Assembly (NCBI RefSeq): GCF_003097315.1
Contig: NZ_QDDL01000010.1
Location: 41,969-105,968 of the forward strand
Source: Pelagibaculum spongiae
Lineage (GTDB): Bacteria; Pseudomonadota; Gammaproteobacteria; Enterobacterales; Pelagibaculaceae
Direction: 5' to 3'
DNA: 64,000 bases
Numbering within the stretch: the first letter of the stretch is position 1; every line of letters starts with the position of its first letter. Made by a program: the position numbers and the translations under genes. The notes below the pieces were generated by a model. The model ran no database searches, had not been told where the DNA came from, and saw nothing but the letters and a program-made list of their open reading frames with translations. Below are positions 1 through 48,717 of the stretch, in pieces.

Positions 1-327
1 GACGGCAGCTTGACTGGCTTTGCATCGGGACTGGAGATGAAGAAGAAGTTATTGCGGGTGGAGGGATTGGTTTAGTAATATTGGCTACCAATCTTGCTAG
101 TTATGACATAGGAATTAATATGTAGTTTTTGAGCATTCTAAATAGTGAACAATATGAGAAAGTATCTGAGCTTCACATTTTCACCTGTGATTGATCCGCG
201 CAGTAGAAATTAAACCGCTATTTCGGCAGTATACTCATCCAACAACAACAACAACCAGTTTCAAACTACACGATTGTGGATCTAATAGAGTTAGTTCATC
301 GGTTTTTTATATAGTCAGGTAGCTAAA

Positions 328-819
328 TTGAATGAAGATCAGAAACAAACGTTAATGAAGTGGCGCTCTAGATGCAAGAGAGCACAAATAGCACACAGTT
401 ACACCGCGATTAGTTATGGTCGATACCATCTTTTTCTAGGTATTATGTTGATCGCTTTAACGACTACATCATGCGTGTTAATTTTTGCTCCTAATACTAT
501 TATGCCTTCGTGGCTCTCACCAACTATCGGTATTTCTGCGGCATTATTTGCATACTTGCAAACCTTTTTACGCCTATCTGAACAGGCCGATTCACAAAGA
601 GTCGTAGCCAGACGGTATGGAGCTTTGAAGAAAGAAATTGAATACATTCTTGATTTTCAACTCAATGCCACTAATTGTATGGATCAAGTTGATAGCGTTC
701 GCGTGAAAGAGTATGAAATCGCAACGGATGCTCCACACGCTTTAAGCCATAGATGGAAGAAAGCCGCAAACGAAACGAAAAGTGAGAATGATTTTTTTAG
801 TCGCCGCAATCGTCCATAA
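328..819 (+). CDS. SLATT-like (DUF4231-like) two-TM effector-type small membrane protein, putative
   Basis: 163 aa. N-terminal amphipathic helix (KWRSRCKRAQIAHSY), then two predicted TM helices (LFLGIMLIALTTTSCVLIF; LSPTIGISAALFAYLQTFL), then a charged C-terminal helix. This is the SLATT/DUF4231 architecture. The locus is low-GC. The annotated start is TTG; an in-frame ATG lies at 355. Confidence 0.5.
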   Translation: MNEDQKQTLMKWRSRCKRAQIAHSYTAISYGRYHLFLGIMLIALTTTSCVLIFAPNTIMPSWLSPTIGISAALFAYLQTFLRLSEQADSQRVVARRYGALKKEIEYILDFQLNATNCMDQVDSVRVKEYEIATDAPHALSHRWKKAANETKSENDFFSRRNRP

Positions 820-898
820 AAAATAAGAACACCTATTTCCGTGGGTATTGGACTCATTAATTTGTCTACTTACGCGTTAAATTTATAGGAAATATATC

Positions 899-2236
899 AT
901 GTACAACTTATTAGTTACGGCAAATATCGGTGCATGGGACAAGCTATCCTATAAATTTGATAAAAGTCGTTTCCTCGAATATACAACTGAATCTATCGCC
1001 ACCGCTTTTACATCCCTAACACCGGAACTTATAAGTACTCTTAAGAGTTACCCCTGTATATTTGCATATGAAGGTTATGAAAAAGATTTCTACATTGGAA
1101 AACTTAACCAGATCGAGAAACGAGGACAAGAGCTATTTATTGAATTTGAATTTTATCCAGATATTGGCCCAATATCTTTTGAAAAAATTTATCCAATCTC
1201 TCAGTTACTTGATATTCGAAAATGGGAAATGGGGAGAACTCATTGGGCTATAAAAGACGAAGATCTTTTTGATCGCCTCATAAAGGCTAATATTTTGACT
1301 CAAAACTTAATAGGTGATAAAAAAATACTTGAAAAACCTGCGGTTCGCGAACAATCAAACGCTACAATAAGTACAGTAAAGGGGTTTGTTGGGAAAGTTT
1401 TTTCATTAGATAGAGGAAATGATTCAGAATTTTTTTATCGAGGACATTCCAATAAGCAAAAATATAAATTAGAACCATCTCTATTTAGAAAAGATGCTAA
1501 TGGAAACTACCTATACCTAAGAAATGAACACATACTATATAGAGAGTTAATCATCTCCAACTCATCAGATTTTCAACCTGACGAGTATACCTTAGATAGA
1601 TTAGTAAGAATGCAGCATTACTCACTACCAACTAGATTATTAGACATAACATCAAATCCACTTATTGCTTTATATTTTTCCTGCAAATTTCAGCCAGAGT
1701 GCACCTCTTGTAAGTCCCAGTCAGAAAGCACTGGCGAAGTAATTATTTTTTCTATAAAAAGAAATGAAATAAAATATTTTGATTCTGATGTAGTCAGCTG
1801 CATTTCCAACTTAGCAAGATTACCAAAAGAAGAAAAAGATAGGATCGATTTTGATTTTAAGCCATTTAACGAACAAACCCCAATCAAAAGATTGGTACAC
1901 CATATCAGAGAAGAGAAATCGTACTTCGAGTCAAAGATCAAACCAAGTGATTTAAAAAAAATCATCTGTGTAAAAGGCAAACAAAGTAATGATAGAATTA
2001 CATCTCAGTCTGGTGCATTTCTGTTATTTGGCCATGACGCAACTCTTGATGAAGAGGGAACACCTGAAATTAGTGTTCGTAGAATTACTGTCACAAATAA
2101 AAGCTCCATTCTTCAAGAGCTTGACCTTTTAAATATTAATGAAAGCACAGTATTCCCATATATTGAAAACTCAGCAAAATACGTTGCTGACAAATACAAG
2201 TTTAATAAAGCAACTGAAGAAATCAGCTTCCTTTAA
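899..2236 (+). CDS. FRG-domain protein with uncharacterised N-terminal domain
   Basis: 445 aa. FRG signature FFYRGHSNKQKYKLEPSLFRK and downstream MQHYSLPTRLLDITSNPLIALYFSC (compare the FRG consensus QHyGlPTRLLDWT...AlyFA). It lies 80 bp downstream of the SLATT-like gene, in the same low-GC islet. Confidence 0.7.
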   Translation: MYNLLVTANIGAWDKLSYKFDKSRFLEYTTESIATAFTSLTPELISTLKSYPCIFAYEGYEKDFYIGKLNQIEKRGQELFIEFEFYPDIGPISFEKIYPISQLLDIRKWEMGRTHWAIKDEDLFDRLIKANILTQNLIGDKKILEKPAVREQSNATISTVKGFVGKVFSLDRGNDSEFFYRGHSNKQKYKLEPSLFRKDANGNYLYLRNEHILYRELIISNSSDFQPDEYTLDRLVRMQHYSLPTRLLDITSNPLIALYFSCKFQPECTSCKSQSESTGEVIIFSIKRNEIKYFDSDVVSCISNLARLPKEEKDRIDFDFKPFNEQTPIKRLVHHIREEKSYFESKIKPSDLKKIICVKGKQSNDRITSQSGAFLLFGHDATLDEEGTPEISVRRITVTNKSSILQELDLLNINESTVFPYIENSAKYVADKYKFNKATEEISFL

Positions 2237-2246
2237 GTTAGCCACC

Positions 2247-2996: not shown

Positions 2997-4085
2997 TCAG
3001 TCACTCCTCGGTTGATCAATATTGGGGGCATGATAACTACTCGAGATCAAGGACCCTGCCATTACCAGCGTCACATCTCCGAAACACCGCCTCTGAGTTG
3101 CTAGGAATAATCTGTCACCTAGCTGACCTTTATACGCTATTTAAAGTACTTTTTCTGCAGTTAAATGCTTATTTTAAAAGTATCTTTTTGATTGAAAAGC
3201 TGGCCTGCAAAGTAACAATCAATCGCTATTTTTCTTATTCAGAATCATTCCACGACCGCGAAAGCGAACATCAAACTTTTAACGATTTTAATTGCATCAT
3301 TAAAAACTGATATAAAGTGAGTCAAAAAAAACTTAAAGGGTCAGACCAAAATTAATAACTCATAAGCAAATACCTCAAGCACTAGAAACAAGCAAAATAA
3401 CTTCGCTAAAAAAAACCTGAAAAAAAACTTAATTAAAAGCTGGGATTTTTTTTAAAAACTATACTAGTAGCACTTAAACCCACGCCGCAGAATATTAGCT
3501 AGTAATGCATTATCCCAAATAGATAACTGCTGACTACCTCTTATTGCTAGAACACCAGCTAACTATATGATCTCGCTATTGGTATTACCACAATGAGGTG
3601 CAACTTTTGGTATGACCTAATCTTTAACATCTGAAAAGTTCGTATTTACTTTTATTTATTTGGCGGCAAAGCAACAAAAAATATTTAAAAACATAAGCTT
3701 AATACAACAAGCAACCCACCAAACCTAATGTTCGATTACGAAATTCATTGATAAACAAGATATTCTGTCACTCAAAAACCTTTAATTAAGTAAGTTTTTT
3801 TGACCTGCCACCATGTTTAGTTCGAACAAAAAAAAATTAGTCTTTTTAGTTGTGCTAGATCAAAAAGTATACCTCTTAATTTACTCAAGATAATTCGATC
3901 AGGATAGAACATGGTTTTAAAGTCAGCACTCCCTACTGGTTCAGTTGTTCAGTTAATGAACGTCAGCCTCTGATTTTAAATATTGTTCATCTGAGAGGCA
4001 TATTCAGGCACACGAGATAAAACAGCAGCTTTATAAATGTTGTTTTTATACTAACTAGCCGCTGTTCCAAGCGTAGGAGTCAACA

Positions 4086-45409: not shown

Positions 45410-45841
45410 ATGACTGAAATTACCTTTTACCTTCTGGCACAAGATAACCAACAGGCTCGAATGCAATATGCCTGTCGAATTGCCGAGAAAGCGGTACAAC
45501 AAGGTAAGCGTGTTTATTTACACACTCAGTCAGAACAACAAGCCAGAGAAATGGATGATCTACTGTGGAGCTTCAAGCCCGGTAGTTTTGTGCCGCATGA
45601 GCGATATATATCCCACGACCCACAAAGCCCGGTAGTGATTGGCTGCGTTGAACGCCCTGAAACTCAAGCCGATATTTTAATTAATCTCAGCACTAACTTG
45701 CCGCTATTCTTCAGCCAGTTTCAGCGCAATATCGAAATCATTCCAGAAGATAACGAAATTCGCCCCAAGCTGAGACAAAACTGGAAGTTCTACCAAGATC
45801 GAGGTTATTCGTTGAAGTTTTTTGATTTAAGAAAGAAATAA
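45410..45841 (+). CDS. holC: DNA polymerase III chi subunit HolC
   Basis: MTEITFYLL...KRVYLHT is the chi N-terminus. Conserved position after pepA. Confidence 0.85.
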
Positions 45842-46371
45842 GCCGTATCAAATAGCGCCCATTTTTTAACAAGCACAGTTCGACATAAAATCCGGCAAGC
45901 CAGAATATTTCATCAAACTGGCAAAAACAGCGCTAGATTCTTACTAACAAAACATCATATTTAGCATAATTCACAACACTAGTAGCGACTGAACCCAGCA
46001 GTGGACTCAACCCATTTTTAGAATGGGTGCCAATGACAATCAGATCCACATCTCTCTTTTCAGCTTCACCATAAATCACCTCATAGGACTTACTGACTTA
46101 ATCATTCAGTTCTTCTTGCTGCTGTGATCTTCTCAATTTCCTCAAGCGCTCACCCTTTTAATTTACTTTGATAATCTTTCAAAAAAAAGATATATGGCAA
46201 AATATTTAATGCCGACGGCCTTGCTCTTGTGGCATTTGCCAGTTCAATAGCTAGGGGTAGAACTGTTCTGTTTGTTCGTGTAAATTCAATCGCGAAAATT
46301 ATAATTTTATATATTTCACTCTTTAAATTATTAAGAAAACAACACAACAAACACCTGTCAGCAATAGAAAA

Positions 46372-46470
46372 TTAATATCTGTCAGTAATGGAATATTAAT
46401 ATCTGTCAGTAATGGAATATTAATATCTGTCAGTAATGGAATATTAATATCTGTCAGCAATGAAACACTA
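46372..46470. repeat. 24-bp tandem repeat x4 (tgtcagtaatggaatattaatatc) containing 10-bp palindrome ATATTAATAT
   Basis: Four near-perfect copies plus degenerate flanking copies, ~140 bp upstream of the HAD-like gene. Confidence 0.85.
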
Positions 46471-46610
46471 AATATCCCTATTTATATTCTGGGCTGATTT
46501 TAAAATAAAATAATTATCTTACTTGCCACAAATAAAATATAGGAATGCGGCAAATACTAGATGGAATGAGCGCTACCGGCCAGCAACAAATCAAGTAAAA
46601 GGAACCTAAA

Positions 46611-47285
46611 ATGTGGCATGTTTTTTTTGATCTTGACCTAACTTTATTTGCTATTGAAGGAGGCTTAGAAAAACTTTCAGCTCACCAACAAGCAAAAACC
46701 TGCATGGTTTACACACCTATTTCTACAAAGAAAACACAACACGCTGTATTTCCTTTGTATACTTTTGAACATCTGAATTTTTTCAATTCAACATTGCAGA
46801 ATTCTCATTTACATTTCATTACTGCTGGATTGTATGAAGAGGCCTCTGCCAAACGTGCAATTTTAAAAATGTTTTCTATCCACTCTGAAGAAATCACCAA
46901 AAAAATTTATGAGGCCAGCTTCTATAATCGAAATGACCTTGAAGCTAGTGGTACAAAAGAAATAGTTTTTGCATGCAATATTCAATCGCCAGTTAAGGTC
47001 GATCCTTCTAATACAGCACAAATACAAATACTTGATTATGCTAAAGCCAAAGCAGCCATCATTTTAAAAACTTACTTGCAGGCGAATGATACATTGCCAG
47101 GAGAAGTAGTACTTATTGATGACAGTGTTGCCAATAGAGTCATAGTAAAACAACAAGGCTTTCAAGCAATCAATCCGACAACAGCCGACTATCCAATGAT
47201 GCTGACACTACTGAGTGACACTATCGCTAGAAATGAGAGCCATTTCTTTTCCCTAGAAGAAGTACTTGCATACAATTTTTCTTAA
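46611..47285 (+). CDS. HAD-superfamily hydrolase-like protein
   Basis: Motif I FFDLDLTLF (DxDxT) at the N-terminus and motif IV VVLIDDSVAN. AT-rich islet at the position where valS follows holC in E. coli. Confidence 0.55.
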   Translation: MWHVFFDLDLTLFAIEGGLEKLSAHQQAKTCMVYTPISTKKTQHAVFPLYTFEHLNFFNSTLQNSHLHFITAGLYEEASAKRAILKMFSIHSEEITKKIYEASFYNRNDLEASGTKEIVFACNIQSPVKVDPSNTAQIQILDYAKAKAAIILKTYLQANDTLPGEVVLIDDSVANRVIVKQQGFQAINPTTADYPMMLTLLSDTIARNESHFFSLEEVLAYNFS

Positions 47286-47536
47286 GCTAGATATTAATTG
47301 TTGCACTATTTAACAGACATTATGCACACGGATTCGTATCATAAGTGCATAAGCAAGCCGTATATGCCGACATATAAACACATAGCGCTAGAGAATTTTC
47401 TCGCTATTATTTACAGGTAAATGCCAAAGTTTCATTCAACGAAATGATACTAGCCAAAACCCTTGCGCCAATTAATTACATTTAAGCCAGTTAAAACCAG
47501 CCGTACTTTCACAAACACCAACTACTGAAATAAAAA

Positions 47537-47572
47537 AACCGAAACCCCACCACAGGATTTCGGTTTTTATTT
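47537..47572. terminator. bidirectional rho-independent terminator downstream of purK
   Basis: aaaccgaaacc ccaccacagg atttcggttttt, flanked by A/T runs on both sides. Confidence 0.7.
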
Positions 47573-47607
47573 AATACAGGCCTTGCGAGTTAAATAGCGC
47601 TTACTGG

Positions 47608-48717
47608 CTACTCTCCACACTCTTGCATAAACCCATCAAACTTGCTGATCAACTGCTGCATATGCGTAGCATCATCGGCAACTAGGTTGATATGACCGAG
47701 TTTACGATTAGCTCGCTCGCTTTTACCATATAAATGCAAATGCGCAGCTGGTTCAGATAACACCAGATTCTTATCACCTTTTTTGCCGATGATATTGATC
47801 ATCGCTGCCAAAGGATGTCGGCAATTGGTGGCTCCTAATGGCAAACCTGAGATTGCTCGAATATGGTTTTCAAACTGGCAAGTCTCAGCACCTTGTTGAC
47901 TCCAATGGCCGGAGTTATGCACCCGTGGCGCCATTTCATTGGCAATTAAAGCTTGGTCACCTTCAAGCCCGGTATCAAACAACTCCAGAGTTAAAATACC
48001 GACATGGTCCAGTTGATCAAGCAGGCTACAAATATGCTGTTCAGCCAACTGTTGTAGCTGCTGACTCACGCCCGGAGCAGGCACTTGAGTTAACCGAAGA
48101 ATACCGTCGCGGTGGCTATTTTCTGCTAGCGGATAAAAAACATGTTCACCCTTGGCATTTCTAGCGGCAATAATCGATAGCTCTCGCTGAAAATTAACGA
48201 AAGCTTCAGCAATCAATTGATTACCTTTTAATTGCTGCCATGCAGGACCGATATCTGCTGCTGTTTTAATTACCGCCTGACCTTTACCGTCATAGCCCAT
48301 GGTGGTGGTTTTCAAAACAATAGGCAGGCCCAGTTGAGCAATCGCACCTTTTAATTCTTCTAGGCTTTCTACTTTATAAAAATCAGCCACCGGAATATTT
48401 AATTCACGAAACAGATTTTTTTCAGTCAGGCGGTGCTGGGAAAAACGTAGAGATTTTACAGAAGGAAATACCGGCTTCTTCAGCTCGATATTTTGGACTA
48501 GCTCCGCATTGATGTTTTCACTTTCGTAGCTAATCACATCAGATGCTTTTATAAATGCATCAAGTGCTGATGGATCCTTTTCATCAAACACTTGCCCAGC
48601 AACTGCCGCGGGCGCACTGGCAGGATTACCATAAAAATAAAATTCATGCTCTAGCGGAATGCCCGCCAAAGCCATCATTCGGCCAAGTTGGCCGGCACCA
48701 AGAATACCGATTTTCAT
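47608..48717 (-). CDS. purK: N5-carboxyaminoimidazole ribonucleotide synthase PurK
   Basis: MKIGILGAGQLGRMM. ATP-grasp fold. Confidence 0.9.
   Translation of the reverse strand: MKIGILGAGQLGRMMALAGIPLEHEFYFYGNPASAPAAVAGQVFDEKDPSALDAFIKASDVISYESENINAELVQNIELKKPVFPSVKSLRFSQHRLTEKNLFRELNIPVADFYKVESLEELKGAIAQLGLPIVLKTTTMGYDGKGQAVIKTAADIGPAWQQLKGNQLIAEAFVNFQRELSIIAARNAKGEHVFYPLAENSHRDGILRLTQVPAPGVSQQLQQLAEQHICSLLDQLDHVGILTLELFDTGLEGDQALIANEMAPRVHNSGHWSQQGAETCQFENHIRAISGLPLGATNCRHPLAAMINIIGKKGDKNLVLSEPAAHLHLYGKSERANRKLGHINLVADDATHMQQLISKFDGFMQECGE

Follow-up and report, generated by a model that had tools for sequence, protein, structure and literature searches.

Among the described systems with which the element considered here may be compared is PDC-S15, an uncharacterised phage-defence candidate (PMC12482510) that is defined as a single gene coding for an FRG-domain protein. 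In PMC9503650 (citing Burroughs & Aravind 2020), the FRG domain is placed in the ADP-ribosyltransferase (ART) superfamily and is a predicted NADase effector. The element itself is a two-gene islet at the left end of a 64,000 bp stretch of Pelagibaculum spongiae DNA (contig NZ_QDDL01000010.1, positions 41,969 to 105,968; the whole stretch is referred to as the window), in which a gene coding for a 163-aa SLATT_4 protein is followed by one coding for a 445-aa protein composed of a predicted PUA-like N-terminal domain and an FRG module. The islet is a complete two-gene insertion between core genes, and comparison with its relatives shows that the FRG-SLATT pairing recurs but is facultative.

Several other systems share components or logic with this locus. 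The SLATT and two-transmembrane (2TM) effectors of the cyclic oligonucleotide-based antiphage signalling system (CBASS) and of Pycsar were reportedly described by Burroughs in 2015, and type II Thoeris combines a TIR signal generator with a Macro-2TM effector. A reverse transcriptase (RT)-SLATT pair is mentioned in PMC9122126. In PUA-Cal-HAD, a PUA-like sensor binds N6-methyl-dAMP (m6-dAMP) derived from phage-induced degradation of the chromosome and thereby switches its effector on, and the same sensor family is also fused to HEPN, DrHyd, TIR, HNH and McrB (bioRxiv 10.64898/2026.01.15.699771).

The 445-aa protein (899-2236, + strand, ATG start) was read as carrying an FRG domain in an earlier note on this DNA, and the Pfam FRG model (PF08867) matches residues 177-263 (nucleotides 1427-1687) with 70.8 bits, relative to a cut-off of 25. 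A FYRGHS motif at residues 179-184 is invariant across the close family. The conserved unit is larger than the Pfam core and spans about 290 residues (150-440; nucleotides 1346-2218), and the PADLOC model of PDC-S15 (PDLC04933) matches it nearly end to end (E 5e-104, residues 152-436 on profile positions 4-283 of 286). Since it is catalogued as PDC-S15, the FRG half of the islet is not new as a candidate; like members of that candidate family, the gene as a rule stands alone in defence islands. The window locus differs from PDC-S15 in that no PADLOC model aligns to the N-terminal domain of its protein, and in that a SLATT gene is attached to what is otherwise defined as a single-gene system. 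The statement that FRG domains have no established function is true experimentally, but overlooks both this catalogue entry and the published ART/NADase prediction (PMC9503650).

Structural modelling bears on that prediction. A first full-length AlphaFold (AF2) model, derived from 23 close homologues, gave a predicted local distance difference test score (pLDDT) of 50.8 and was poor over the FRG module, and a second model, of residues 145-445 with 99 sequences down to about 36% identity, has a pLDDT of 86.4 and a predicted template modelling score of 0.83. The second model shows the ART core fold; the structural match scores are moderate and the list of matches is coherent, with the alignment to ART cores covering only ~100-140 residues of the ~290-aa module, which carries large family-specific helical additions. 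These fold matches provide independent support for the published placement in the ART superfamily (PMC9503650); no sequence link from the FRG protein to solved structures was found. R181 (the arginine of F-Y-R-G), T251 and N253 (in LLDITSNP) are invariant in the 99-sequence alignment, and E280 (in G-E-V) is conserved in at least 90% of the sequences. R181, T251/S252 and E280 form a candidate R-S/T-E triad, and in the model they lie on predicted strands in the expected order. We conclude that the FRG module is a predicted NAD+-using ART-fold enzyme whose chemistry we infer from its fold and conserved residues.

The ART toxins (RES/ParT/MbcT, acting as NADase or ART) resemble the FRG module in their fold, as predicted, in having R...S/T...E-like invariant residues, and in the logic of abortive infection. 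They differ in that the window's FRG gene has no cognate antitoxin gene, so that control would fall to the fused sensor, and in that the FRG module, at ~290 aa, carries its own helical additions. DarT and CmdT are ARTs that act on nucleic acids. FRG modules are also joined to other N-termini, namely none at all (proteins of ~300 aa), MarR or winged helix-turn-helix types (350-380 aa) and PF28527 (~500 aa), and some carry a C-terminal DUF1508. In the FRG family, the input domain therefore varies from protein to protein, whereas the predicted catalytic output stays the same.

The N-terminal domain of the FRG protein (residues 1 to ~140; 899-1318) was initially considered unassignable, and this holds at the sequence level: the first ~140-150 residues have no match in Pfam, NCBIfam or PADLOC, and a search of the Protein Data Bank (PDB) sequences with a 32-sequence profile also gave none. 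At the level of the fold it no longer holds. The domain has a pLDDT of ~80 over residues 1-105 of the first AlphaFold model, and its best Foldseek matches are to YTH domains and Lon N-domains (E 0.04, probability 0.91). Further fold matches are to the 5-hydroxymethylcytosine (5hmC)-dependent endonuclease VcaM4I (match value 5.9), THYN1 bound to 5-methylcytosine DNA (5.3), ASCH (5.3), the 5hmC-specific PD-T4-3 (4.8) and McrB N-domains (4.2-4.4). From this model the N-terminal domain can be assigned as a predicted PUA-like beta-barrel of the YTH/EVE/ASCH-like kind. Thirteen of its residues are near-invariant (W13, R24, E27, T29, P52, F55, Y57, E58, E110, R113, H115, W116 and K119), of which W13, F55, Y57 and W116 could, judging from their conservation, constitute an aromatic ligand cage.

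The distribution of this domain extends far beyond FRG proteins. A HMMER scan of 1.84 billion representatives identifies it in at least 765 clusters at E <= 1e-3, in proteins of 89-896 aa, and it is almost always N-terminal. Among the best 150, the C-terminal partners include CAP12/Pycsar-type TIR (20), TIR_2 (19), protein kinase (11), Abi_C (9), FRG (7), TIR (6), SEFIR (3), cytidine deaminase (2) and PNP_UDP (2), with single cases of GmrSD_N, a DpnII-MboI nuclease, AbiJ_NTD3, CHAT and others; nearly all of the recognisable C-terminal domains in this set are defence effectors. The C-terminal parts of the fusions match PADLOC models for PD-T4-6, NsnA, and TIR and PN-superfamily effectors, and the PADLOC models never cover the N-terminal domain itself. 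Fusion to so many defence effectors indicates that the domain is a promiscuous front end, which is how a domain with a sensing or regulatory role should behave.

An N-terminal PUA-like fold placed before an effector is also the arrangement of the modification-dependent restriction enzymes (VcaM4I, PD-T4-3 and the McrB N-domains, with PUA-like, EVE or YTH readers). The likeness to PUA-Cal-HAD extends to the mixing of one N-terminal PUA-like fold with many swappable effectors. In the window, however, the effector is an ART-fold FRG module, and FRG has 0 occurrences in the main text of that preprint; moreover, the best 150 relatives of the window's N-terminal domain have partners for which 25 families are listed, none of them of the calcineurin type. 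The two sensors are likened by fold, with no sequence link between the window's domain and any Pfam PUA-like family.

The 163-aa protein (328-819, + strand, TTG start) has the SLATT layout that was first proposed for it, as judged from NCBIfam, PADLOC and hydropathy. It matches NCBIfam SLATT_4 (NF033632) with 98.7 bits (cut-off 55), the PADLOC '2TM effector' model (PDLC00712) with E 1.4e-8, and, weakly, the PADLOC model of RT-associated SLATT proteins; it also matches phrog_36926. Of the two Pfam profiles with which the islet proteins were to be checked, FRG thus exceeds its gathering score, whereas SLATT_4 (PF18186; E 9.6e-5, 22.6 bits) falls under its gathering score of 27; precomputed PF18186 matches are present on close homologues of the 163-aa protein. 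The transmembrane (TM) hairpin was called from Kyte-Doolittle hydropathy alone, with a strongly hydrophobic TM1 at residues 35-53 (nucleotides 430-486; 2.38) and, after a short PNTIMPSW loop, a weaker TM2 at about residues 61-82 (nucleotides 508-573; ~1.0). The N-terminal helix is basic (KWRSRCKRAQ, with KWR[SA]RxKRAQ in 31 homologues that are 49-72% identical), and the charged cytoplasmic tail contains R91, R95, Y97, G98, K101, K102, E105, W143, E153 and N154, which are invariant in the same 31 homologues. The clade is small, with 32 clusters found. A TTG start behind a good ribosome-binding site (RBS) is present at 8 of 14 SLATT loci (the window, L081, L083, L085, L087, L088, L090 and L096), with ATG used by more distant members, and this conserved TTG start would be in keeping with a membrane protein that is toxic and whose level must be held down tightly. 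SLATT has no sequence link that we found to solved structures, and no match in the phage collection or in IMG/VR.

These profile matches and the two-TM hairpin relate the protein to the SLATT effectors of CBASS, Pycsar and RT systems, although the window has no cyclase, SLOG or RT gene nearby, the partner is instead an FRG enzyme, and many members of this SLATT clade are orphan genes. The initial judgement that this is not a canonical CBASS is upheld, as no CD-NTase (SMODS) cyclase is present: there are just two genes between core genes, and neither matches a nucleotidyltransferase model. No SMODS or SLOG gene was found at the window locus or in the SLATT homologue contexts examined.

The relationship between the two genes can be viewed from either partner. 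Homologues of the FRG protein were sampled at 132 loci, of which 80 are in genomes (one per species) and 52 are viral. An obligate two-gene system is rejected, as SLATT is present at 0/132 of these loci and the 80 genome loci share no conserved partner outside one Pseudomonas block. We also considered that another 2TM protein might replace SLATT, but a hydropathy screen of the two nearest genes on either flank gave no consistent membrane protein. The lack of SLATT at 132/132 loci suggests that the enzyme normally works alone and that pairing is optional.

From the SLATT side, an FRG gene is the immediate neighbour in about three of 11 distinct contexts examined for the clade; the FRG proteins concerned are of two architectures, and their genes precede SLATT in some of these contexts and follow it in others. 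Four metagenomic contigs (L087, L088, L089 and L095) contain a 72%-identical SLATT gene 14 bp downstream of a gene coding for a 377-aa FRG protein, an order (FRG377-SLATT) that is the reverse of the window's SLATT-FRG. The module of the 377-aa protein is 40% identical to the window's, and its N-terminus of ~100 aa is unrelated and reads as a winged helix. In L087 there is an attC-like GTTAGGC core after SLATT and no space for one between FRG and SLATT, which suggests a two-gene cassette. In a further set of contigs (L090-92) a 68%-identical SLATT follows a 60-aa remnant of the 377-aa FRG gene (85% identical) that has been severed by an IS110 insertion sequence (IS). The co-localisation that had been put forward as a check on the pair is therefore seen elsewhere, intact in the first four contigs and IS-disrupted in the latter three. 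A neighbour-joining tree, constructed without support values, places the window SLATT and the FRG377-linked SLATTs in the same subclade, though not as sisters. By a rough estimate, FRG is rare enough that two independent adjacencies to it would be improbable as coincidences in a clade of this size. Functional coupling of SLATT to the FRG protein is possible on this evidence, and we place it a little short of an even balance. We found no paper on an FRG+SLATT pair in the literature.

Other neighbours of the SLATT clade are a DUF4917/SIR2-like gene after SLATT in one context and a DUF2971 gene after it in another; the DUF4917/SIR2_2 partners have NAD-linked folds. We note that the Logan contig L086 has an intact DUF4917 (SIR2_2/AbiH-like) gene after SLATT, whereas Pectobacterium aroidearum (L085) has only a 56-aa open reading frame (ORF) there, and that DUF2971 genes recur near both SLATT and FRG cassettes (L085, L086, L100 and L109). 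L090-92 are Joint Genome Institute metagenome contigs in which the FRG truncation lies inside a Tn7-like element (TniQ/TniB; about 4571-10340 in L090). Downstream of SLATT in these contigs, and co-oriented with it, are genes for an adenosine deaminase, a Ham1-like ITPase, SIR2_2 and an unknown 351-aa protein, which could represent a distinct defence cluster centred on purines and NAD. Homologues of the 377-aa FRG protein are found without SLATT in superintegron-like arrays in Vibrio cholerae and, less clearly, in V. mytili. On V. cholerae chromosome 2 (L105-L108) the gene for a 373-aa FRG protein is a single cassette in a regularly spaced series that includes DUF645, ParDE, GNAT and HD genes. 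Neither the sedentary-integron defence preprint nor the P2-hotspot paper mentions FRG.

The full two-domain FRG protein has more than 2,600 homologues, and the best 120 (64-71% identity) span Aeromonas, Halomonas, Marinobacter, Vibrio, Serratia, Pectobacterium, Nitrospira and Bacteroidota; such high identity across distant taxa indicates horizontal spread. FRG-domain proteins in general are widespread, with thousands of clusters that include members in P2-like prophages and Vibrio integron cassettes. All-against-all clustering of neighbours at the 80 genome loci reveals no conserved partner apart from one Pseudomonas-specific syntenic gene or block. Six of the 10 genes immediately downstream of FRG homologues match PADLOC models, these being methyl-directed restriction endonucleases, PDC-S19, a Mrr-like type IV enzyme, NsnA, bSEFIR and PDC-S35. 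Homologues with 39% identity over residues 18-433 are encoded by P2-like phages (Peduovirus P2_2H1, PhiR11_1 and Tritos), phrog_4962 spans both domains, and 52 IMG/VR contigs encode relatives. In Peduovirus P2_2H1 (L165) the homologue is at 30979-32343, a few genes past the replication gene and near the genome end, at a known variable defence hotspot of P2-like phages. In Escherichia phage PhiR11_1 (L166) an IS2 lies immediately upstream of the FRG homologue. The solitary habit and the setting in defence islands and prophages are in line with a defence gene that acts by itself, and the FRG gene is probably one. Of the proposal that the islet is a defence module, therefore, the part concerning the FRG gene is supported by context (PDC-S15, its neighbours and the P2-like phages), but the two genes do not form an obligate pair.

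Within the window the islet consists of the two co-oriented genes on the + strand, and their spacing, first given as 80 bp, is 79 bp (820-898, with an RBS, AGGAA, at 887-891). Each of the two proteins has a 100%-identical NCBI entry from P. spongiae. The AT-richness of the islet relative to its flanks is also confirmed, with a GC content of 35.0% over 328-2236; none of 621 sliding segments of 1.9 kb has a lower value (mean 43.1%, standard deviation 2.6), and the islet was most likely acquired horizontally. It had been thought to abut the window edge, with further partners possible upstream. This is not so, as positions 1-75 (+ strand) contain the 3' end of a core gene for an MGMT/Ogt-type DNA methyltransferase: the 24-aa translation of 1-72 matches PF01035 at profile positions 59-80 of 81 (E 0.0038), followed by a stop codon at 73-75. 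There is thus no further partner immediately upstream and the islet is complete within the window. Between this left border and SLATT is an AT-rich spacer (76-327), which is presumed to be the promoter region and contains an RBS, AGGTAG, at 317-322; a simple sigma-70 consensus scan identified no + strand promoter upstream of the SLATT gene. A terminator scan found seven sites, all on the - strand, with no + strand site between or within the two genes, and co-transcription of SLATT and FRG is therefore likely. The right border is a convergent core gene for a TauE/SafE family membrane protein (2247-2996, - strand; PF01925, 58.7 bits; 48.7% GC) that ends 10 bp past the FRG stop codon. No tRNA gene, Rfam match, integrase, or convincing direct or inverted repeats are present in the flanks. 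A search upstream of SLATT in the window found no remnant of the gene for the 377-aa FRG protein of the kind seen in L090-92.

Two other low-GC regions of the window may be mentioned. Separating the TauE gene from a NuoF-like (Complex1_51K) gene is ~1.1 kb of AT-rich sequence (3000-4085; 31-36% GC) with no ORF greater than 70 aa and no Rfam match, and with three promoter-like sites clustered at 3171-3325. A second patch, at 46001-48000 (37.1% GC), contains a 224-aa ORF (46611-47285, + strand) with no Pfam match, located between genes read as holC (45410-45841) and purK (47608-48717), and this may be another small insertion.

We propose that the islet may be an abortive-infection module in which a sensor and an ART-fold enzyme that consumes NAD+ are joined by an accessory membrane effector, a reading on which we judge the balance to be about even. 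The 445-aa protein would be the core of the module, an autonomous sensor-enzyme that in most genomes needs no partner. If it behaves as other PUA-like readers do, its N-terminal domain would sense a modified base or nucleotide, present either in the nucleic acid of the phage or in breakdown products of the infection, and ligand binding would release or assemble, and so activate, the ART-fold FRG module. The module would then hydrolyse NAD+ and so deplete it, or move ADP-ribose onto a target, which might be nucleic acid because FRG modules are fused to reader domains of the nucleic-acid type. Either outcome would block phage replication at the expense of the cell. The SLATT protein would be a co-transcribed but optional addition, membrane-disrupting and kept at a low level through its TTG start. 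Triggered by the activity of FRG, it would add membrane depolarisation to the response, with an ADP-ribose product, direct modification, protein contact or the collapse of NAD+ as candidate triggers.

A number of observations weigh against this proposal, and particularly against the coupling of its two proteins. With tblastn and a clade hidden Markov model, SLATT was found beside homologues of the 445-aa FRG protein at 0/80 genome loci and 0/52 viral loci. SLATT is solitary in Photobacterium toruni, Vibrio nigripulchritudo and Pectobacterium carotovorum and in an integron cassette array, its distant SLATT_4 relatives sit among metabolic genes on Caballeronia megaplasmids, and in Vibrio the proteins homologous to the 377-aa FRG protein (72-80% identical) are likewise encoded by solitary genes. 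The GC and third-position GC (GC3) contents differ between the SLATT gene (40.4/34.8%) and the FRG gene (33.3/26.5%), which would fit separate origins or acquisition times. SLATT contains no SLOG, Macro, SAVED or other recognisable sensor or ligand-binding domain in Pfam, NCBIfam or PADLOC. As to the sensor, the N-terminal domain model comes from a shallow alignment (full model pLDDT 50.8), and no sequence-level link joins the domain to any PUA-like family in Pfam, NCBIfam or the PDB.

Most of these points are shared by the main rival explanation, that two independent single-gene modules lie side by side in a small defence islet without interaction, which we hold possible if rather doubtful. 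It accounts for the usual occurrence of SLATT and FRG each without the other, for both being known as single integron-type cassettes, and for their different compositions, and it would draw on the general tendency of defence genes to cluster, as seen in the PADLOC matches among FRG neighbours. It does not readily explain why FRG adjoins SLATT in three of ~11 contexts with two architectures and in both orders, when the rarity of FRG makes chance adjacency unlikely by the rough estimate above; the 14 bp between FRG377 and SLATT is too short for a cassette boundary, and there is no + strand terminator between the window's two genes. A role other than defence, whether as a toxin-antitoxin-like addiction module, in a membrane or stress function, or as decaying cargo of an old insertion, we consider very improbable. 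The single distant SLATT_4 genes among metabolic genes, the lack of an integrase, tRNA or flanking repeats at the islet and the failure of a simple scan to detect a promoter for it could all be read in that way, but both ORFs are intact, conservation among their homologues is strong (mean identity per column 78% and 66%), FRG homologues occur in defence islands and prophage hotspots, and the fusion partners of the N-terminal domain are almost exclusively defence effectors.

A closer alternative retains the coupling but shifts the killing to the membrane. In a signalling pair resembling Thoeris or CBASS, FRG would make an ADP-ribose-derived messenger or would ADP-ribosylate SLATT, and the SLATT pore would be the sole killer. 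SLATT domains are defined as effectors of nucleotide-signalling systems in the Pfam/NCBIfam family description, Frg is listed among NAD+-processing signal-generating or NADase domains (PMC9503650), and SIR2-like proteins are among the other neighbours of the SLATT clade. There is also a conceptual likeness to type II Thoeris in the pairing of an NAD+-processing enzyme with a membrane-spanning effector, but the window's enzyme is of the ART fold, without a TIR or Macro domain, and neither islet protein has a TIR, SIR2, SLOG or Macro match in Pfam, NCBIfam or PADLOC. A SLATT protein acting as sole effector fits poorly with an FRG enzyme that is solitary at 132/132 loci, and the usual lack of a membrane partner argues against obligate signalling of the Thoeris type; furthermore, SLATT has no known sensor domain, and there is no known messenger from any ART-fold enzyme of the FRG family. 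We regard this alternative as unlikely. In its fullest form, to which we give the same low standing, the 445-aa protein would be a novel type of immune sensor-enzyme, in which the PUA-like domain would read an infection-specific modified nucleotide or modified nucleic acid and activate the ART-fold enzyme, and an ADP-ribose-derived signal or an ADP-ribosylated SLATT would open the pore. If true, this would be an ART-based, non-TIR route of NAD+ signalling to a membrane effector, and effectors of the TIR, kinase, Abi_C and deaminase kinds would, throughout bacteria, be under the control of this one uncatalogued sensor domain.

With regard to the abortive-infection module that we propose, FRG as PDC-S15 with a published fold prediction, the SLATT effector family, and the experimental precedent of a PUA-like sensor with a swappable effector were already known. 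What is new here is the fold-level assignment of the N-terminal domain together with its repertoire of fusions, the PUA-like plus ART(FRG) architecture, and the recurrent, facultative linkage of FRG and SLATT_4. The locus provides a concrete and testable model for FRG, with a PUA-like sensor, an ART-fold enzyme and an optional membrane effector. The FRG-SLATT linkage offers a natural comparison of the enzyme with and without its pore partner, and hence a way of asking if NAD+-derived chemistry can drive SLATT. The N-terminal domain is the more general result and merits its own family definition; to know its ligand could make clear by what means numerous unrelated defence proteins of the single-gene kind sense infection.

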